From: Escherichia phage LF82-4 | Length of the DNA: 64,000 bases | Sequence record: PV660448 | Direction: 5' to 3' (one strand) | Part shown: positions 13,040-51,866 of the stretch, in pieces | Layout: each line of letters begins with the position of its first letter | Numbering within the stretch: position 1 is the first letter of the stretch | Position numbers and translations under genes: made by a program | The notes under the pieces: model-generated | What the model saw: the letters and a program-made list of their open reading frames with translations, nothing else | Databases searched by the model: none | Told to the model about the DNA's origin: nothing

Positions 13040-14728
13040 TTATGAAACAGTCATTACAGTAAATCGTCCAACTTTACTCATCTGAAGATGTTGTCCATAA
13101 CGTTGAGGGTCATGGTCTCGATGAGAGATAATGAACACGTTAGTATTTTGTAAACTTCCAAGAATGGTATCTATAGCCTTAACAGCTTCAGAATCTACAG
13201 CGCCGTCAAAAACCTCATCAAGAATCAACGTGTTGATTTTAACACCAGAAACTTTTTCAGCAATATCTCGCCATGTAAACAACAATGCGATATCGATACG
13301 TGCCTTTTCACCTTGACTAAATGAAGCATAACTAAAATCTTCACGACCACGTGATTTTATAGATTCATTGAATTCTTCGTCAATAGAAAACACATAATCA
13401 GCTTCCATGATTTTAAGGTAATGGTTAATCTGCTTGTTGAACAGAGGCACATATTTTTTAATGATAGCACCTTTAATACCAGAATCTTTTAACATATCTG
13501 TTATAATACCACGATGGTATTTTTCAAGAACGTTATCCGATTTTGTTTTAATGATTTTATCAAGTTCTTTTTGAAGCAAAGCTATCTCATCGGCATGGTC
13601 GATAAATTCCGCCGAGGCTTGTTCTATTGCAGCTTTAACTTTCTTAGCTTTATCAATAGTGGCAATCATTGCTTGTTTCTTGGTACGAATATCAGATGCA
13701 AGGTCCTGTTTAGTCTTAACATTAGCTCTATATTCGTCCACTAGGACACTCAGATTATCTCTGTGACAGGTAAGTTGCTCGAATGAGTGATTACATTCAT
13801 GAAGCTTATCGGTAATCTTAGAGACAATAGGATCACCCTGGTGCAACTGTGATGCACAAGTAGGACATGTGCCACCGTCATGATACATCTTAATAACTTT
13901 GTTGTATGAGTCGATTTTAGATTTAATCAAGAATGCTTCTTGTCCTATCTTGTTGAATGCCTCAGTAGGGTCTTCATCAAGAACGATATTAAGTAGTCGC
14001 TCATTAGCTTCTTCGATTTCCGCTTTTAATGAACGAGCTTCTTTGGCTAGGTCGTCATACATATTCTGTAGACGCGCTACATTATCACCAGATAATTTCT
14101 TTTGACGTTCGATATTCTCGTTATAAATCTTAATTTGTTGGATAACACCATCTTTCTTAGCATCGAGAACTTGTCCCTGGGAATTAAGTTCTCGAACTTG
14201 AGACTTATTGATTTTATCCATTTCAGCGAGTGTGCCGACTTCTAAAAGGTCTTCGACAAGTTTTCTACGAGCAGGGGTGCTAAGAGCCATGAAAGGGGTA
14301 TACCCTGCCGTCCCAAGCACAACGATCTGTTTAAAAGACGCGTATGACATTCCGATGCTACGTTCAAATTCTTCTTGGAAGTCACGACTGCTGGCAGATT
14401 CATCGAGACGAACACCGTCAACGGAGATTTCGAAAATATTGGGCTTTTGGCCTCGTTTAATGAAGTATTTTTTATCATCGAATTCCATCCAAAGCTCAAC
14501 TAAGAGCTCTTTCTTGTTCGTGCTATTAATGATTTGTCCTTTCTTAACATCACGAAATGGTTTACCGAAAAGTCCGAAAGTAATGGCTTCTAACATCGTA
14601 GATTTACCACCGCCATTTTTACCAGTGATTAATGTCTTTTGGACTTTATCTAATTGGATATCAATAGGATTCCCACCTACCGACATGATGTTTTGATAAC
14701 GAACACGATTTAATTTAAATGATTTCAT
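13040..14728 (-). CDS. 46: recombination nuclease subunit (Rad50/SbcC-like)
   Basis: 562 aa; Walker A GKNGGGKST, zinc hook CPTC, signature/Walker B near C-terminus; T4 synteny. Confidence 0.95.
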   Translation of the reverse strand: MKSFKLNRVRYQNIMSVGGNPIDIQLDKVQKTLITGKNGGGKSTMLEAITFGLFGKPFRDVKKGQIINSTNKKELLVELWMEFDDKKYFIKRGQKPNIFEISVDGVRLDESASSRDFQEEFERSIGMSYASFKQIVVLGTAGYTPFMALSTPARRKLVEDLLEVGTLAEMDKINKSQVRELNSQGQVLDAKKDGVIQQIKIYNENIERQKKLSGDNVARLQNMYDDLAKEARSLKAEIEEANERLLNIVLDEDPTEAFNKIGQEAFLIKSKIDSYNKVIKMYHDGGTCPTCASQLHQGDPIVSKITDKLHECNHSFEQLTCHRDNLSVLVDEYRANVKTKQDLASDIRTKKQAMIATIDKAKKVKAAIEQASAEFIDHADEIALLQKELDKIIKTKSDNVLEKYHRGIITDMLKDSGIKGAIIKKYVPLFNKQINHYLKIMEADYVFSIDEEFNESIKSRGREDFSYASFSQGEKARIDIALLFTWRDIAEKVSGVKINTLILDEVFDGAVDSEAVKAIDTILGSLQNTNVFIISHRDHDPQRYGQHLQMSKVGRFTVMTVS

Positions 14729-21912: not shown

Positions 21913-22023
21913 TTAATTAATTAACCAAGCGTTGATAAGCAAACCATATTGCGAATAAAATTCTGGGCCAAAATGAAAAATCATATCATTTATAGTATCC
22001 ATAATATAATTCAATTTAATCAT
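21913..22023 (-). CDS. small hypothetical protein (36 aa)
   Basis: ATG at 22023, 2 nt after nrdG stop; longer track ORF overlaps nrdG by 119 nt. Confidence 0.3.
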   Translation of the reverse strand: MIKLNYIMDTINDMIFHFGPEFYSQYGLLINAWLIN

Positions 22024-22486
22024 GTTTCCACACCCCATCGGTATTTGACCAAAGTCGCTGATTATCTGATCCTCGCCACAGCTTTTTGGTCGGAAGATTT
22101 TTCTCATACTTCCCATCAATAATAACATCAACATATTTAAGCATTTTTAGTTGTTTAATATCTTCAAACTTATATCCTGTCCACAACCAAATGCTTTTAT
22201 TGGGATAAAGATTTTTAATAGTTTGAACCACAGAGTGAATCACATCTCGGTTATCAGGATAGAGAGGGTCACCTCCGGTTATAGTCAATCCTTCTATATA
22301 ATCATTATTCAAACATTCAATTAATTGTTCTAGTGTTTCACCAGTGAATGGAATACCATTTCTAGCATTCCATGTTGATTTATTATAACACCCTTCGCAT
22401 TTATGCAAACAACCTGTGACGAAAAGAACGACCCTACAACCAGGGCCATTCACAAAATCGCAAGGATAAAATCTATCATAATTCAT
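22016..22486 (-). CDS. nrdG: anaerobic ribonucleotide reductase activating protein (radical SAM)
   Basis: 156 aa; Cys cluster CLHKCEGCYN; 4-nt overlap with nrdD. Confidence 0.9.
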   Translation of the reverse strand: MNYDRFYPCDFVNGPGCRVVLFVTGCLHKCEGCYNKSTWNARNGIPFTGETLEQLIECLNNDYIEGLTITGGDPLYPDNRDVIHSVVQTIKNLYPNKSIWLWTGYKFEDIKQLKMLKYVDVIIDGKYEKNLPTKKLWRGSDNQRLWSNTDGVWKHD

Positions 22487-24300
22487 TGGTGTTTAACCCT
22501 ATGCATGATTTCTTTATTTTTGCCGAGATTAAATCCACGTTCGTTCGGGTTCCCCAAATAACCGCACGTTCTTCTTATGGTGTTCATCTTTTTAGGATCA
22601 GTTTCTCCACAAACTGAACAAACAAATCCATTTTCAGTAGGAGTCATCTCATGGGTACTTCCACACGTAAAACATTTATCTACTGGCATGTTAACACCAA
22701 AATAATCTAAATGTTGTGCAGCATAATCCCACACGGCCTCAAGACCTTTTAAGTTATTTTTCATATCAGGAAGTTCAACATAAGAAATGTGACCACCTGT
22801 CGCAATGAAATGATATGGCGCTTCACGAGAAATCTTTTCAAACGGAGTAATATTTTCTTCTACTGAAACATGGAAACTATTAGTGTACCAGCCTTTATCA
22901 GTAACATCCTTTACACTTCCATATTTTTCTGTATCAAGTTTACAGAAGCGATAACAAAGGTTTTCAGCAGGAGTAGAATACAAGCTAAAAGCAAATCCGG
23001 TTCTTTCAGTCCACTGTTTAAGACGAGCATTCATTTTAGTTAAAATTTCTTGCCCAATATCACGACCGACAAGAATATTCAATTCGTGAATACCAATGTA
23101 TCCTAAAGACACTGAACTTCTACCGTTTTTAAATAACTCAATTATGTCGTCATCAGGTTTAAGACGAACCCCGAATGCACCTTCTTGGTAAAGAATAGGA
23201 GCAACAGTCGCTTTAACACCCTTTAAAGAACTAATTCTACACATCAAGGCTTCAAAACACAGATCCATTCGTTCATTAAATAATTCGATAAATTTCTGTT
23301 CATTGAACTGTGTTCCAATATAAGAATCTAATGCGATACGAGGAAGATTCAGTGTTACAACACCAAGATTATTACGTCCATCAAGAATTTCATTACCAGT
23401 CGAATCTTTCCATACGCTCAAGAAACTACGGCAGCCCATTGGAGAAACTGGAACTGAAGAACCGGTAATAGCTTTATTATTCTTAACAGAAATAATGTCA
23501 GGATACATTCTTTTGCTTGCACATTCTAACGCAAGTTGTTTAATATCATAGTTCGGATCATCTTTATAAAGATTAACACCTTCTTCAACAAACATAACAA
23601 GTTTAGGAAAAATAGGAGTTATTCCATCACGACCAAGACCTTTAATCCGATTTTTCAGAATTGCCTTCTGAATCATTCGTTCAGTCCAATCGGTTCCCGT
23701 ACCAAATGTAATTGTTACAAAAGGCGTTTGTCCGTTTGAACTAAAGAGAGTATTTACTTCATATTCATAAGCTTGGAACGCATCGTATACGTCTTTTTCT
23801 GTTTTAGATTGGGCATAATTCAACGCATCAGCGATTTGCCATTTTTCTGCATCCTCAATATGTTTTGCATAGGTGCGTTTAACATAAGGAGAAAGAACTT
23901 TATCGACATTCGCAAATGTAGTTCCGCCATACTGATGTGAAGCAACTTGTGCAGTAATTTGTGCCATAATTGCAGTAGCAACACCAATCGATTTAGGCGT
24001 TTCAATTTGAGCATTGCCTAATTTAAATCCATTCTCAAGCATCCCCTTTAAATCGACTAAACAGCAATTAGTAAATGGAAGAGCAGGAGAATAATCAATA
24101 TCATGCATATGAATGATTCCGCTTTCATGCGCATTCATAATAAAAGACGGGACCATATTTTTGGCAATGTGCTTAGACACAATACCAGCCATAAGGTCCC
24201 GTTGAGTTGGAAAAACACGAGAATCTTTATTAGCATTCTCGTTCAAAAGATCTTTATTAGTTTTATAAATTAATCCTTCAATTTCTTTTTCAATTTTCAT
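22483..24300 (-). CDS. nrdD: anaerobic ribonucleoside-triphosphate reductase (glycyl radical enzyme), uninterrupted
   Basis: 605 aa; C-terminal glycyl-radical motif RRTCGYLG and Zn-ribbon CFTCGS...CSVCG; single continuous ORF (no intron). Confidence 0.95.
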   Translation of the reverse strand: MKIEKEIEGLIYKTNKDLLNENANKDSRVFPTQRDLMAGIVSKHIAKNMVPSFIMNAHESGIIHMHDIDYSPALPFTNCCLVDLKGMLENGFKLGNAQIETPKSIGVATAIMAQITAQVASHQYGGTTFANVDKVLSPYVKRTYAKHIEDAEKWQIADALNYAQSKTEKDVYDAFQAYEYEVNTLFSSNGQTPFVTITFGTGTDWTERMIQKAILKNRIKGLGRDGITPIFPKLVMFVEEGVNLYKDDPNYDIKQLALECASKRMYPDIISVKNNKAITGSSVPVSPMGCRSFLSVWKDSTGNEILDGRNNLGVVTLNLPRIALDSYIGTQFNEQKFIELFNERMDLCFEALMCRISSLKGVKATVAPILYQEGAFGVRLKPDDDIIELFKNGRSSVSLGYIGIHELNILVGRDIGQEILTKMNARLKQWTERTGFAFSLYSTPAENLCYRFCKLDTEKYGSVKDVTDKGWYTNSFHVSVEENITPFEKISREAPYHFIATGGHISYVELPDMKNNLKGLEAVWDYAAQHLDYFGVNMPVDKCFTCGSTHEMTPTENGFVCSVCGETDPKKMNTIRRTCGYLGNPNERGFNLGKNKEIMHRVKHQ

Positions 24301-25403: not shown

Positions 25404-25531
25404 AATAATCTCTTCCCATTTCCATATCAATTAATTCATTTATTGAAGGTTCATCATAACATGGTTCTTCGTCGTTGTAAACCGTTTCGACGTCTGGCTC
25501 GACAGTCTCCCATCGAGCAGAATACCACGGT

Positions 25532-25867
25532 TTAACCCCGGAGTTTATTGAGCTCTTCATAATCAATCCAGGATTCTAGCCCTGACGGCAGGTCACATTC
25601 AATGTTCCACAGAAGCTCTTCAATGGCTTGCAGGCGATTATATTCTTCAACAGTAATAGTAACCATTGTTTCAGGCTTTTTAACCATCATGTCATTCATC
25701 AGAATGTACAGATCTTCACAAACAGCCGGGTCGTCCCATGTCCATATTTCAGCATCTCGAACCAATGAAGTCGGAATAGAATTTAAAACTTCAAGCTTAG
25801 TAGGAGCGTCAGGACCGAGAAGAGTTGCTACAAATTTATATGCTTTGGCGAAATCAATATCGTTCAT
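25532..25867 (-). CDS. hypothetical protein (111 aa)
   Basis: track ORF. Confidence 0.55.
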   Translation of the reverse strand: MNDIDFAKAYKFVATLLGPDAPTKLEVLNSIPTSLVRDAEIWTWDDPAVCEDLYILMNDMMVKKPETMVTITVEEYNRLQAIEELLWNIECDLPSGLESWIDYEELNKLRG

Positions 25868-38027: not shown

Positions 38028-38337
38028 CTAGACGGTCCACCATAGAATTGCATGCTGCCTTATCTTTAGGTTCCGCCACCGAGCATTCTAATATTTGCCA
38101 TTTTTTATAGTATCTTTTAATTAAGGTAGACGCCTTGAACCTACTAGACGCCCCATCTTTTTCTCCGTCTTTATATGCATATAACAATTTTTGTGAAAAA
38201 TCTACTTTACACTCTTGACTTTTACCACAATAATCAGACGCCGTTCTGTTTGTATACTCCGTTACATCAGTATATGTAGTATTAGCAAGAGCGTTAAATG
38301 AAACCAAGCCAACTATTAAAGCCAACATTTTGGTCAT
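37990..38337 (-). CDS. secreted protein with signal peptide (115 aa)
   Basis: MTKMLALIVGLVSFNALA signal. Confidence 0.55.
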   Translation of the reverse strand: MTKMLALIVGLVSFNALANTTYTDVTEYTNRTASDYCGKSQECKVDFSQKLLYAYKDGEKDGASSRFKASTLIKRYYKKWQILECSVAEPKDKAACNSMVDRLVDSYTRGLAASD

Positions 38338-38876
38338 TCTTTTATTTCCAGTAGTTTATTTGATTTAAGGTAATTAGCCTTTTCTAGGACTTCAGAAGCA
38401 TATTTACTTCCAGCACTTGTCTTCCATCCAGCATTATATGAGGATATGGCTTTCCTTATATCCCCGTTATGTATATTTAACCAATAAGAAAATTCGATAT
38501 AAGCCCATCTTGCTGAATTAGACCGCTTAGATAGCATTTTCTTAATTTGGGCATCAGTCATATTATAACCAAGCTGGTTAATTCTTGCCCTCATTGTTGG
38601 TAGATAATTTTGGAACATTCCATACGCATGGTGACCTTTCTTATCTTTAAGATTAATACCGGCAGATGATTCCTGCCATAGTATTGCGGCCATTATGTAT
38701 CCAAGTCCTTTCTTATGCATATTTTCATGCGTTTTAAATTTTCCATCCTTAGAAAACTGTTCCCCAAACTGATAAGCATAATTCAAGTTATCGAGTTGGA
38801 CATTACTAAAAGTATGCTCGGAGCTATGTGCTGATAACGAAAGAGCAAATAGACCAGCGAGTAGTGCTTTTCTCAT
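38334..38876 (-). CDS. periplasmic lytic-transglycosylase-like protein (SLT domain)
   Basis: signal peptide; ILWQESS catalytic-Glu motif, GMFQ and SYNAG motifs. Confidence 0.6.
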   Translation of the reverse strand: MRKALLAGLFALSLSAHSSEHTFSNVQLDNLNYAYQFGEQFSKDGKFKTHENMHKKGLGYIMAAILWQESSAGINLKDKKGHHAYGMFQNYLPTMRARINQLGYNMTDAQIKKMLSKRSNSARWAYIEFSYWLNIHNGDIRKAISSYNAGWKTSAGSKYASEVLEKANYLKSNKLLEIKE

Positions 38877-38884
38877 GTTTACCT

Positions 38885-39343
38885 CTAGATTTTAATCACT
38901 GCTTTAGAAGCTTTTCCTGGTAGTCGTTTACTGTTAATAATAGCCATTCTGCATTGAAGAGTCTTCATTTTGAATGCTGGATTTTCGCGACAAACTGTAA
39001 GTCCTAACCAAAGATTTCCATCAGTTATTTCTAAACGGCCTGGGCGATATTCGACACCTTCGACAAAATCTTCATCAACATCTGGACGTGCCGGCATTGA
39101 TAAAAATTCTGCAACTTCTTTAGCATGATTTTTTACTTTATGAAATAATTCAAAAACGTAATTCTCATCTATTTCTCTCTGGATGGCACGATCTAAGAGA
39201 TGTTGAGAATACTTGATATGAAAGCCTGGTAGTCCAAGAGACTTTGCAGCATCTTTTATACCGGCATTTATTTTGCGGAACTCCGTTTCAAAGATTCGAC
39301 GGAGTTTATTACGGCGGATAAAAACTTCCGAATTGATAGTCAT
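38885..39343 (-). CDS. regB: endoribonuclease RegB
   Basis: 152 aa from ATG 39343 (MTINSEVFIRRNKLRR...); matches T4 RegB as recalled; track start is TTG. Confidence 0.85.
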   Translation of the reverse strand: MTINSEVFIRRNKLRRIFETEFRKINAGIKDAAKSLGLPGFHIKYSQHLLDRAIQREIDENYVFELFHKVKNHAKEVAEFLSMPARPDVDEDFVEGVEYRPGRLEITDGNLWLGLTVCRENPAFKMKTLQCRMAIINSKRLPGKASKAVIKI

Positions 39344-39350
39344 TTTGATT

Positions 39351-39400
39351 TCTCCTCTAGTTGACAAGTCTATAGTAACACAACTAGAGGAGAAGTAAAC
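39351..39400 (-). promoter_or_regulatory. promoter-early stem-loop with SD in 3' arm (10-bp inverted repeat TCTCCTCTAG/CTAGAGGAGA) upstream of regB
   Basis: minus strand GTTTAC TTCTCCTCTAGTTGTGT TACTAT ...CTAGAGGAGAAATCAAA ATG. Confidence 0.55.
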
Positions 39401-39699
39401 TACTCTTTGAAAGGAATTAACTTTTTAACTGCTTTAGATACTTCGTCACGAACCTGATGGAAGTTCTTGAGCTGTTCAAGGCGTTGTTCGTAATACGCAA
39501 TCTCATCTTCTTCAAGACAATCGTCAGCGTCTTCTTTCAGATATGCCTTGTACTCATTAAAGAGGGCCCATAGGCGGTTCTCAAAGTCATCAAGGCTTTG
39601 AATTTTCTTGTGCTTCGGAACAAGGCCAAAAGGATTGCTTTCAGTTATGCGTCTAGATGCTTCATAATGAGTTCCAAAGCCTGATAGGATTTGAGCCAT
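39400..39699 (-). CDS. hypothetical protein (vs.3-like position)
   Basis: 99 aa; ATG start. Confidence 0.55.
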
Positions 39700-39965
39700 T
39701 AGTATTTTTCCTCAGGTCGAAATACTGCACGACAGGCCCACATGCTGGCTTCTTTTAGATGTTGCTTAGCATACTTAAGAGCCTGTACTGCATCCATATC
39801 TTCTTTGGTTTGTTGCTCTGTTTCATTTTCTTTCAAGATATATGCTTCTTCAATCAGAGCATCAAACAACAATCCAAGACGGACTTCTGCATCTTTAATA
39901 GCGTTCACTTTACCGATTTTATCGTCGGTATGCGGCTTGTAGCCTTTGATGTCTTCAATCGACAT
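39699..39965 (-). CDS. hypothetical protein (88 aa; position of T4 vs.4)
   Basis: ATG at 39965; longer track ORF N-terminus is an out-of-context extension. Confidence 0.5.
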
Positions 39966-40179
39966 AAGGAATTTCCTCATCGGTGACAAGGTCATATTCG
40001 ACCAATTGGATAGGCTCGTTAATACCATATCCACGTACAGTGATATCGGTTGTCGGATATTTTCCAGTAATATCACCCATTCTAAATGCTTCAGTGAATG
40101 ATTGCTCACCTGAGCAACTAAACCAGGCGGCAAAACATTTTAAAACATCTTCAGACCCTTCTATAATCAATTTAGCCAT
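39955..40179 (-). CDS. hypothetical protein (74 aa)
   Basis: ATG start; 1-nt overlap with GrcA-like stop. Confidence 0.5.
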   Translation of the reverse strand: MAKLIIEGSEDVLKCFAAWFSCSGEQSFTEAFRMGDITGKYPTTDITVRGYGINEPIQLVEYDLVTDEEIPYVD

Positions 40180-40541
40180 TATAGACTCTCAGTAAAGGTA
40201 CGAGCGATAACGTCGCGCTGCTGTTCCGGAGTCAGAGAGTTAAAGCGAACTGCATAACCGGATACACGAATGGTCAGCTGAGGATATTTTTCCGGATGCT
40301 TAACTGCATCTTCCAGAGTTTCACGACGCAGAACGTTAACGTTCAGGTGTTGACCACCTTCAATTTTAACTTTAGGTTGATGTTCAATTTCAATTTCACG
40401 GGCATGTAAACCGTAGAAAATTTCCGGGTCTACAATAGCGTCTTCTTTAAAAGTCTTAGAGACGATAATCCGGGCTTGAGTACCATCTTCAAAATAAATA
40501 GTGCCTTTATGTACACCTTCAAGAATTTGATATGCTTTCAT
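40179..40541 (-). CDS. autonomous glycyl radical cofactor (GrcA/YfiD-like)
   Basis: 120 aa; C-terminal ~60 aa (…[59 protein letters not shown]) match E. coli GrcA as recalled incl. glycyl-radical site RVSGYAV; 3' half visibly GC-richer. Confidence 0.8.
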
Positions 40542-40547
40542 ATAACC

Positions 40548-40856
40548 TCAATTAGAAAATAAATTTATCCAAGTTTTTTCTTTAATCAAAAATGGGTCGG
40601 AATTAAACGCCATTAAACTTTGAGTGATTAATCCCTTAAACGGCCCATCAATAAATTCCATTTTGAAATGCGGAATACTAGTCATCAACCGTGCATTAGG
40701 AGCAGTACAAAGAACCTGCTGCCCCGCGAAAGGACCTTTAGTCAAACTGTATCGTTTAGGTTTAAAATGGTAAATCTCATAATTTTCTACAAGAGCCCTT
40801 TTATTGCATACTGGGCTGTTATAACAATATTCAAAAACTTCAATAGTGGTCATCAT
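40548..40856 (-). CDS. hypothetical protein (102 aa)
   Basis: track ORF. Confidence 0.5.
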   Translation of the reverse strand: MMTTIEVFEYCYNSPVCNKRALVENYEIYHFKPKRYSLTKGPFAGQQVLCTAPNARLMTSIPHFKMEFIDGPFKGLITQSLMAFNSDPFLIKEKTWINLFSN

Positions 40857-41392
40857 TGCATTCCAATCACAAAAAATTGAGGACGAGCATTACCGCCGAT
40901 GCAATATTTGCTTTTGCAACAGTGTTGGACTGTTTTAATATGGACATTGTAAATCTTATCCATATCAGGAGCTTTAATAGGCTCGTCAATTATGTACAGA
41001 ATACGAGAAAGCGTTAATCCACGGAATTTAGAACCTTCATTGCCAATAAAACTACGGACAGAATCGGTAAATAAACGGAATCGAATATCATCGCTAGAAT
41101 AACGAGAAAATTCTTTTTTAATGTTGCCAGCAGAAATTTTAGCATAGGCTGAAGTATTAGAAAGAACAATAACTGTTCCACCATCATACAGCCAATTAGC
41201 AGCAAAGTTAGTCACAGCAATTGATTTACCTGATTGTCGGCCGCCGTCTAAACGAAGTGTACAGTACTGCTTGAGTACGTCTTCAAACGGTGGGATATAA
41301 CCGTTCTTACAAATTTCTTCTACTCTAGCATCAGAATGGTGTGTAAAAGCATTCATCAGGGATAGATAAGGTCCAGTTAAAAATGTTCTCAT
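40853..41392 (-). CDS. hypothetical protein (179 aa) with P-loop-like GGRQSGKS
   Basis: ATG start; Walker-A-like motif. Confidence 0.55.
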   Translation of the reverse strand: MRTFLTGPYLSLMNAFTHHSDARVEEICKNGYIPPFEDVLKQYCTLRLDGGRQSGKSIAVTNFAANWLYDGGTVIVLSNTSAYAKISAGNIKKEFSRYSSDDIRFRLFTDSVRSFIGNEGSKFRGLTLSRILYIIDEPIKAPDMDKIYNVHIKTVQHCCKSKYCIGGNARPQFFVIGMQ

Positions 41393-48828: not shown

Positions 48829-49422
48829 TTATTTCAAAGAGTTAATATATTCTTGTACATCAGCAGAAGTGGTTTCGACACCGGCTGGAGTGCCATTGAA
48901 CGTTTCAACACGAGTCAGAGTGTCTTCGATATCAACCTTAGTCAGTGCAGCGATTTCAATCACATCATCAGCCGTAGAGATACCAAGGGCATTGGCTGCT
49001 CGAGTTTCACGAATGTATTCGAGTTTGATTGCCAGGTTCTGACGAGCATCATCAAGTTCAACCACCTTACGAGCAATTTCAATTCGCATAGCGGCATACC
49101 CATCAGCTTTTGTATTAAGTTGTTCGGCAGTTCGACGATACAGAAGACCAAGCTTAGCATGCATGGTAACATCTTGTCCTTCAGCCAGGAGCTTACGAAT
49201 TTCACGTTCCTTAGAAGCGGCTTGCTTGTTCTTTTCATTAACAAGTTCGCGAATACGTTTTTCTTCATTAATAGATTTAACAGAAGCCGTTTTTAGTTCT
49301 TTGATTTGGGTAATCAACTTATCTGCAGCTGCGTTATACTGTTCTTCGACAGTCAGATTTTTAGCCATAGCAGTACCCAGTTTAGTGCGGATGAATTCAA
49401 CAAGTTTCTTCAGTGTGTTCAT
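48829..49422 (-). CDS. hypothetical coiled-coil protein (197 aa)
   Basis: ATG at 49422; track start is TTG. Confidence 0.55.
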
Positions 49423-50362: not shown

Positions 50363-50392
50363 AACTTTTTAAACTTTTTCTGCCCTAGATAC

Positions 50393-50421
50393 CAAAAAGC
50401 CCCAACCTTTCGGAAGGGGCT
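50393..50421 (-). terminator. intrinsic terminator, copy 3 of 3 identical hairpins
   Basis: same 24-bp hairpin AGCCCCUUCCGAAAGGUUGGGGCU plus U-tract. Confidence 0.55.
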
Positions 50422-50462
50422 AAGCCTTGCGGCAACCTTGTCGGGGTTTCCACCTACTAGGT

Positions 50463-50554
50463 AAGTGTTTGTACGAAACGCCGGGATTCGAACCCGGTTA
50501 TTAAGCAGTTGACGCTACTCAATATTTTTAAAAGGCCATATCTCGACCATATCC
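50463..50554 (-). ncRNA. tRNA-like structured RNA candidate (acceptor stem plus canonical T-arm, non-canonical interior)
   Basis: minus strand 7-bp acceptor pairing CGGAACG/CGUUUCG and T-arm CCGGG-UUCGAAU-CCCGG; no canonical D/anticodon arms found by hand; lies in 330-nt ORF-free gap. Confidence 0.3.
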
Positions 50555-50732
50555 GAACGTTCCGTCAAAAACGCTACTCGGCTTACGGCAAAGATATTTC
50601 CTCGAATCGATAATTCTGTGCGCCGTTTCTGCTGTGATGTAAGGGGATATTAACGAATCATAAAGATTTATTAAGACCAGTCCTTACTCAGGGAACATCA
50701 GTCCGACGACTTACCGGTAGCGACCCGGCTTC

Positions 50733-51794: not shown

Positions 51795-51866
51795 TGGCCC
51801 TGGCTGGTTTCGATCCAGCTACCTATCAGTTATGAGCTGACAGCTCTCCCATTGAGCTACAGGGCC
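51795..51866 (-). tRNA. tRNA with anticodon CAU (Met or Ile2-type)
   Basis: 72 nt cloverleaf folded by hand: acceptor GGCCCUG/CAGGGCC, D-arm GCUC/GAGC, anticodon stem GUCAG/CUGAU with loop CUCAUAA, T-arm GCUGG/CCAGC; no encoded CCA. Confidence 0.8.

Follow-up and report, generated by a model that had tools for sequence, protein, structure and literature searches.

We identified in the genome of Escherichia phage LF82-4 (sequence record PV660448) a gene, vs.6, whose 5' half is phage-type and whose 3' half is nearly identical to the grcA gene of Escherichia coli, a mosaic that most probably arose when host DNA replaced part of an older phage gene. The analysis covered one stretch of 64,000 nucleotides (nt), hereafter the window. 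The open reading frame (ORF) at 40179-40541 is vs.6, a gene of T4-like coliphages whose product is an autonomous glycyl radical cofactor of the Y06I type (Table 1). It has the position and length of T4 vs.6, whose product (Vs.6/Y06I; NP_049730, "autonomous glycyl radical cofactor GrcA") is identical to that of LF82-4 at 113/120 residues (94%). The presence of a homologue of GrcA (also known as YfiD) in T4 had been stated correctly in the sequence-only reading, an earlier account of the same DNA made without database searches. Six of the seven amino acid differences fall in the N-terminal half of the protein (N-half) and the seventh is R73H of T4.

The gene is flanked by vs.7 and vs.5 in the tk-vs-regB-denV early region, as annotated in phages LF82-1, vB_SsoM_113 and T4, and the order vs.8-vs.7-vs.6-vs.5-vs.4-vs.3-regB is common to the ORFs of LF82-4, T4 and Shigella phage vB_SsoM_113. 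The lengths of vs.8, vs.7 and vs.5 differ between LF82-4 and T4 (window 38334-41392 compared with T4 60000-66000). The stop codon of vs.6 overlaps the ATG of vs.5, and a promoter and terminator scan around vs.6 returned matches no commoner than in shuffled sequence. At the DNA level, vs.6 has 100% identity to its counterpart in Escherichia phage LF82-1; in all, 1,523 phage records match it, 925 of them over at least 80% of the gene length. Its ORF is among those kept in all the T4-like genomes compared in an earlier survey (PMC1524935).

Table 1. Features of vs.6 and related genes in the 64-kb window of phage LF82-4.
Feature	Position	Strand	Remarks
vs.6 coding sequence	40179-40541	-	ATG-to-TAA ORF, 120 amino acids; orthologue of T4 Vs.6/Y06I, autonomous glycyl radical cofactor
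Phage-type N-terminal half, codons 1-60	40362-40541	-	Old, diverged homologue of the GrcA N-half
Host-derived patch, codons 61-117	40191-40361	-	Escherichia grcA copy; 169/171 nt identical; GC 0.485
GGT codon of Gly95	40257-40259	-	Glycyl radical site in RVSGYAV, from the sequence and alignment to 6owr and to pyruvate formate-lyase (1cm5/1h16)
Phage-type 3' tail GAG AGT CTA TAA	40179-40190	-	Shine-Dalgarno-like GAGAG; overlaps the ATG of vs.5 (40177-40179)
GAGG ribosome-binding site of vs.6	40546-40549	-	4 nt 5' of the ATG; overlaps the TGA stop codon of vs.7
vs.5	39955-40179
nrdD	22483-24300	-
nrdG	22016-22486	-

Codon alignment with E. coli grcA divides vs.6 sharply in two. Residues 61-120 are identical to E. 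coli GrcA at 60/60 positions, including the glycyl radical motif RVSGYAV, compared with 18/60 for residues 1-60, much as the sequence-only reading had described the last and first ~60 residues. At the DNA level, 175/180 of the last coding nucleotides match the host gene (97.2%), and identity drops to 49% on the 5' side of codon 61; the higher host identity that the earlier reading anticipated in the 3' half is therefore evident in the nucleotide alignment. All five differences in the C-terminal half (C-half) are synonymous (C-half positions 81, 93, 174, 177 and 180). Only two of them, CCG to CCT (window 40281) and ATC to ATT (40269), fall within the 171 nt of codons 61-117; the other three are in the last three codons, which read GAG AGT CTA in the phage and GAA AGC CTG in E. 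coli. Thus, the "host-identical C-terminal half" of the sequence-only reading holds for codons 61-117 (169/171 nt) but not for the last three codons, which are phage-type and make the host tract internal to the gene. The maximum chi-square breakpoint falls at aligned nt 178, at codon 60/61 (chi2 = 107.7; reached in 0/2000 permutations), with identity to host grcA of 0.49 on its left and 0.97 on its right.

Base composition changes along with identity. The C-half of vs.6 has a GC content of 0.483 and the N-half one of 0.344, GC content at third codon positions (GC3) is 0.38 compared with 0.22, and the compositional break coincides with the junction. Across all 180-nt intervals of the window, the mean GC content is 0.370 (standard deviation 0.037) and only 0.13% of them reach 0.483. 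A sliding-window profile is accordingly far from uniform over vs.6, and the GC-rich C-half on an AT-rich background noted earlier is borne out by measurement. Part of the contrast comes from amino acid composition, because the C-half of E. coli grcA itself has a GC3 of only 0.43. The host-like C-half and the GC contrast of vs.6 are nonetheless real and far beyond chance. Equally GC-rich 180-nt intervals (0.47-0.49) occur at 50381-50590, 14221-14450, 25451-25640 and 48861-49050, none of which matches E. coli by megablast. The GC-rich stretch near 50.4 kb does not correspond to a tRNA gene; in 46-52 kb, tRNA-Met (51795-51866) was the sole tRNA gene found.

A megablast search of the whole window against 5,426 complete E. 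coli genomes returned one match in each (5,426/5,426), at 40171/40174-40363, annotated as grcA in every case among the matches listed; nothing else in the 64 kb matched these genomes. In distant mode, blastn of vs.6 gave matches at a median of 3 places in each E. coli genome, the best being grcA among the matches listed. The candidates pflB and tdcE were rejected as donors on this ranking; in a plasmid search with K. pneumoniae grcA they were only 71-83% identical.

Strong conservation of the protein suggests an explanation without recombination, in which a whole grcA was captured once, long ago, and its C-half stayed host-like under purifying selection while the N-half drifted. The C-half protein is indeed nearly invariant across hosts and phages (40 invariant columns in the alignment), and the N-half is truly homologous to that of the host. 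Yet selection on the protein does not keep synonymous sites, and, at the residues that phage and host have in common, third positions agree at 55/60 sites in the C-half compared with 9/17 in the N-half (p = 8e-4), a contrast that implies that the two halves differ in age. Serratia and Pectobacterium, whose C-half protein is identical, still have 21-24 differences from E. coli in the 180 nt. Over the same 180 nt, identity to E. coli is 98.9% in another Escherichia species, 92.8% in Citrobacter amalonaticus and 83.9% in Salmonella; it is 97.2% in LF82-4 and 98.3% in T4, but only 72-74% in coliphages of other genera (74.4% in Krischvirus, 72.2% in a T5-like phage). Because the Krischvirus and T5-like coliphages are so far from E. 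coli, adaptation to E. coli codon usage is not the explanation either. Further, a neighbor-joining (NJ) tree of the 171-nt patch (75 taxa) grouped Tequatrovirus, Mosigvirus and Escherichia in one clade with 99% bootstrap support and gave 0% to phage monophyly, so the patch nests within Escherichia. The synonymous-site and phylogenetic results refute the single capture, to which we give scarcely any weight.

The two halves of vs.6 are also placed differently, the patch with Escherichia and the N-half nearest to other phages. The nearest host of the LF82-4 patch was Escherichia in 100% of bootstrap replicates, and in five Tequatrovirus and Mosigvirus phages the patch is 1-6 nt from E. coli, compared with 14-18 nt from the nearest non-Escherichia host. 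The unconverted homologues of other phages (Slopekvirus, Karamvirus, Pseudotevenvirus, Krischvirus, Aeromonas phages and T5-like phages) have C-half DNA that is 72-84% identical to any host. Near-identity by itself gives no direction, and exchange both ways between host and phage has been proposed for cyanophage psbA (PMC1484495); Escherichia and K. pneumoniae could conversely have received the 3' half of grcA from T4-like phages. In the hosts, however, the N part of grcA and the patch diverge in step over the host phylogeny (84.6%/83.0% for E. coli and Salmonella; 90.5%/90.6% for K. pneumoniae and a Klebsiella metagenome-assembled genome, MAG). The GC3 of the patch resembles that of each host's own N-half (0.43 compared with 0.39 in E. 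coli; about 0.5-0.65 in Klebsiella-type hosts) and is an outlier in the phages (0.38-0.63, compared with 0.17-0.25 in their N-halves). The patch is moreover present in all 5,426 E. coli genomes (5,426/5,426), in one place each, grcA among the matches listed, and transfer from phage to host would need two phage genera each to have donated sequence that fits the codon usage of its recipient. Because the host genes are not mosaic and the patch has the composition of the host and is an outlier in the phage, we conclude that the transfer was from host to phage; the opposite direction is highly improbable.

The phage-type parts of the gene point to an older homologue beneath the patch. Compared alone by BLASTP, the N-halves of the phage protein and E. 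coli GrcA are 35% identical over 40 amino acids (E = 2e-6). The N-half is a diverged homologue of the GrcA N-half and not a foreign module, and vs.6 is for this reason a partial gene conversion within one homologous gene. The phage-type N-terminus "fused" to a host-like half in the sequence-only reading was thus right as to the mosaic and wrong as to a fusion. AlphaFold predicted a small beta domain of the same topology in the phage N-half (predicted local distance difference test score, 90-92) and in the E. coli GrcA N-half (85-90). We rejected the idea of the N-half as a phage-only folded module, as the topology and the confidence of the E. coli prediction are similar. The confident beta domain predicted for E. 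coli GrcA 1-60 stands against the nuclear magnetic resonance (NMR) report that YfiD residues 1-60 are disordered. Against the PDB, a Foldseek search with the N-half retrieved nothing beyond non-significant KOW/SH3-like matches (E 0.1-0.5). At the nucleotide level, the LF82-4 N-half differs at 6 positions from that of Mosigvirus RPN187 and at 20 from that of T4, within a range of 6-47 across Tevenvirinae genera; its allele is Mosigvirus-like.

Both ends of the host tract coincide with features of the phage gene. On the 5' side, the junction is at the conserved sequence GAAGGTGG, at codon 61, where the similarity between phage and host begins. On the 3' side, the 12-nt tail GAG AGT CTA TAA is identical in Slopekvirus 05F and Cronobacter phage leB, and in phage pKp20 the ribosome-binding site of the downstream gene is annotated within the last three vs.6 codons. 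These three codons also differ between LF82-4 and T4.

The patch is not private to LF82-4. Relative to E. coli grcA, T4 differs at 3 C-half positions, Mosigvirus RPN187 at 2 and phage OES_C-2 at 1, so the comparison with T4 and its relatives called for earlier shows a T4 C-half that is likewise near-identical to the host gene. When host grcA was searched against phage records, 486 of the 1,510 matched it only at nt ~200-384, at 95-99.5%, and a further 146 matched it at 90-95%; among the matches listed, those at ~90-92% are longer alignments that run into the divergent part. A full-length host-like grcA was not found in any of them, as 0/1,510 phage matches cover at least 80% of the host gene. 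The host patch is thus common to T4 and about 490-630 Tequatrovirus and Mosigvirus records. This distribution bears on the possibility that host reads or DNA contaminated the phage assembly and produced a false chimera, as a host-identical, GC-rich tract might suggest. The same in-frame junction is present in the T4 reference and in hundreds of independently sequenced phages, the patch has phage-side synonymous changes and a phage-type 3' tail, and the reading frame and the overlap with vs.5 are intact. These observations already refute an artefact, whose probability we regard as negligible. One 118-residue phage-type Vs.6 carries the label "GrcA [Escherichia coli]"; its contig, of 167,969 bp, probably represents a T4-like phage genome deposited under E. 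coli. In Escherichia phage vB_Eco_Some (OZ034686), the host patch of vs.6 contains a tandem duplication of ~79 nt. Because this length is not divisible by three, the C-terminus is frameshifted after ...ARTF; the duplication could be a real variant or an assembly error.

The age of the patch can be gauged against its surroundings. Between LF82-4 and T4, the number of synonymous substitutions per synonymous site (dS) is 0.72 in vs.8, 1.09 in vs.7, 0.97 in vs.1, 1.93 in regB and 0.44 in the vs.6 N-half, whereas only 2.0 synonymous differences separate the two patches over 43 synonymous sites (Fisher p = 0.002 compared with the N-half). Because the flanks have diverged and the patch is nearly the same, it must have moved horizontally after the LF82-4 and T4 lineages split. 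The "recent recombination with the host gene" of the sequence-only reading is supported by the 99% clade and the synonymous sites, but "recent" is relative: the patch is common to many phages and is younger than the divergence of the lineages that carry it. The vs.6 neighbourhood is itself a mosaic among T4-like phages, with diverged flanks and an RPN187-like N-half allele.

A parallel patch is present in Klebsiella phages of the genus Jiaodavirus. In their vs.6 genes, GC3 rises from 0.23-0.25 in the N-half to 0.58-0.63 in the C-half, and the breakpoint is at aligned nt 180, again at codon 60/61 and with the same 5' junction as in LF82-4. The protein homologue search returned no K. pneumoniae GrcA among the 120 matches listed, and the K. 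pneumoniae gene was identified by a metagenome scan with a 32-mer from pKp20, an exact protein match and a plasmid collection. The 32-mer matched 24 intact bacterial grcA genes in gut metagenomes, whose protein is GRCA_KLEP7, and the commonest metagenome allele is 100% identical to annotated K. pneumoniae grcA. The plasmid collection (PLSDB CP125156.1, NZ_CP093490.1 and LR134122.1) includes whole chromosomes or chromosome pieces. Among the host sequences, a 1-nt insertion in an A-run of K. aerogenes NCTC10006 grcA is probably a sequencing error.

The patches of pKp20, 15882-3 and PSE-D1 differ from K. pneumoniae grcA at 5-7 of 171 nt and have no mismatch over the first 101-131 nt; their C-halves are 25-28 of 180 nt from E. 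coli. The nearest host of the Jiaodavirus patch was K. pneumoniae in 93-99% of bootstraps. Thus, the same 5' junction occurs in two phage genera whose patches came from two different hosts. The docking domains of the Escherichia and Klebsiella types differ at only two residues (E/L, K/E; positions 77 and 81 of the phage protein). K. oxytoca phage PKO111 has a patch at a distance of 18 nt from K. pneumoniae, with variants in common with other Klebsiella and Raoultella alleles. In Raoultella phage Ra_O-1 the distance is 11 nt, and 5 of the 7 patch differences from K. pneumoniae also occur in a Raoultella MAG allele. These similarities hint at other species-level donors for the two patches, in a host comparison set without K. 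oxytoca and R. ornithinolytica grcA.

Vs.6 has the traits expected of its protein family. It is a small, stand-alone protein (~14 kDa) made up essentially of one glycyl radical domain of the pyruvate formate-lyase (PFL) type; Pfam Gly_radical is the sole domain found (67.3 bits; cut-off 22.2). Gly95, in RVSGYAVRF near the C-terminus, aligns with Gly102 of E. coli GrcA and Gly734 of PFL. The best PDB match of Vs.6 is 6owr (YfiD), followed by the PFL C-terminus, and 6owr and PFL are also the top Foldseek matches. The C-half is 60/60 identical to the structured part of YfiD in 6owr, and residues 57-120 align to PFL residues 696-759 (E = 3e-26). Judged by its sequence, Vs.6 agrees with the GrcA family in every trait that we examined except its score against the NCBIfam equivalog TIGR04365, whose alignment covers residues 18-120; it falls below the cut-off because the N-half has diverged. 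Compared with E. coli GrcA (P68066; NMR structure 6OWR), Vs.6 has the same glycyl radical domain, glycine motif, Pfam domain and predicted two-part architecture, but it is 7 residues shorter and its N-half is only 18/60 identical. The phage gene also sits in an operon of overlapping genes, unlike the host gene, which is at ung-grcA.

The known biochemistry of the family suggests what the phage protein may do. YfiD residues 61-127 take the fold of PFL residues 693-759, and residues 1-60 assist binding and activation (PMC8683613). T4 Y06I and YfiD receive a glycyl radical from the PFL activating enzyme (PFL-AE), and bind PFL after its cleavage by oxygen, restoring its activity (Wagner et al., 2001, as cited in PMC8683613). 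By analogy, the host activase PflA (PFL-AE) would place a radical on Gly95 of Vs.6, and the C-terminal domain would then take the place of the PFL glycyl radical domain once oxygen has cut PFL at Gly734. Repair of this kind would bring back the conversion of pyruvate to acetyl-CoA and formate in microaerobic conditions, and a phage copy might keep it going after host gene expression is shut off. The host patch spans YfiD residues 68-124, which is nearly the whole docking (glycyl radical) domain. The C-terminal glycyl radical domain of PflB (1H16, 2PFL) is the PFL part that Vs.6 would replace, yet PflB is a 759-residue enzyme and its DNA is not the donor. As the sequence-only reading had noted, nrdD and nrdG are both present in the window, and together with them vs.6 belongs to the equipment of the phage for growth at low oxygen. 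In Aeromonas phage Ah1, the end of nrdG overlaps the vs.6 homologue, and nrdC and nrdH come next, unlike in T4; this arrangement links a vs.6 homologue physically to the anaerobic ribonucleotide reductase genes.

The reading that best accommodates these results, to which we assign a probability of roughly 0.88, is that vs.6 is a mosaic in which host grcA DNA replaced part of an older, diverged phage homologue, with a parallel event in Jiaodavirus. An ancestral T4-like phage already had a diverged grcA homologue, as the phage-type N-half shows, together with the C-half DNA of other phage genera, which is only 72-84% identical to any host. In the Tequatrovirus/Mosigvirus lineage, codons 61-117 have been replaced by those of Escherichia grcA, presumably through homologous (homeologous) recombination. 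The 5' limit of the tract is set by the end of phage-host similarity at GAAGGTGG and the 3' limit by the last codons, constrained by the ribosome-binding site and start codon of vs.5. Jiaodavirus underwent an equivalent replacement independently, with K. pneumoniae grcA as the donor.

Several observations weigh against this reading. We infer the recombination step and its enzymology, and the longest exact match between unconverted phage alleles and E. coli grcA is only 11-20 nt. With such short matches, the first conversion would have taken place on poor homology, unless the ancestor was then more host-like. The NJ clade of Jiaodavirus with K. pneumoniae had only 36% bootstrap support when the divergent PKO111 and Ra_O-1 were included, and the nearest-host bootstrap was used in place of this weak support. 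Nispero, which was isolated on K. aerogenes, has a patch of the K. pneumoniae and not the K. aerogenes type, and host tracking at the species level is unsupported. Against TIGR04365, Vs.6 scores 158.6 bits, under the cut-off of 170, compared with 233.9 for E. coli GrcA. The function of LF82-4 Vs.6 is likewise drawn by analogy from the literature on T4 Y06I and E. coli YfiD. Finally, within Tequatrovirus and Mosigvirus, one event followed by phage-phage spread and repeated events with the host fit the data alike and cannot be separated.

The first of these two histories posits one host-to-phage conversion and later spread among Tequatrovirus and Mosigvirus in co-infections, with no recurrent host exchange. 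T4-like phages recombine freely, segments of vs.6 move between lineages, as the distances of the N-half from RPN187 (6 nt) and T4 (20 nt) illustrate, and all the E. coli-type patches have the same 5' junction. The patches show, however, a star-like pattern in which each is as close or closer to E. coli (1-6 differences) than to the other phage patches, and that of OES_C-2 shows no difference from E. coli in the first 173 nt. The 3' ends also vary (GAG AGC CTG, GAG AGC CTA, GAA AGT TTG and GAG AGT CTA), and Jiaodavirus received a separate patch from a different host. We consider the single event unlikely, although far from negligible. For recurrent gene conversion that resets ~100-170 nt of vs.6 to the grcA of the infected enterobacterial genus, in concerted evolution with the host, we see an even chance. 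Repeated conversion of this kind may draw on Escherichia for Tequatrovirus and Mosigvirus and on the K. pneumoniae complex for Jiaodavirus. The exchange may have been lost in lineages beyond a similarity threshold (Slopekvirus, Karamvirus, Krischvirus and T5-like phages), which may then have drifted to phage composition.

The protein and its function were already known, and the mosaic adds nothing on the role of the gene. Its evolutionary pattern is also of a known kind, namely intragenic recombination between host and phage, as in cyanophage psbA and psbD, for which exchange between host and phage copies has been reported (PMC1484495). These are likewise host-derived metabolic genes of T4-like phages with patchy %G+C and segments of mixed ancestry (Zeidner et al., 2005; Sullivan et al., 2006, PMC1484495). 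In contrast to psbA and psbD, the donor species of vs.6 can be named, the patch is near-identical to it, the junctions are mapped to within a few nt and parallel patches are present in two genera. We found no description of the DNA-level mosaic of vs.6 in the searchable literature, which did not include Wagner et al. (2001) and the 2003 T4 genome review, and an earlier description is possible. For annotation, the 170 nt of host-identical sequence can lead to false assignments to a host or prophage and can misdirect similarity-based host prediction.

The gene vs.6 provides a clean, mapped case of strictly virulent T4-like phages acquiring DNA from the host chromosome through homologous replacement within a gene. 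T4-type coliphages are virulent and degrade the DNA of their host. The case makes it possible to test how often virulent phages recombine with host DNA while it is being degraded and how much homology is needed, and whether the host identity of the docking domain is selected or a neutral by-product. If conversion is recurrent, the patch would be a natural reporter of recombination from host to T4-like phage and a marker of the recent host genus.

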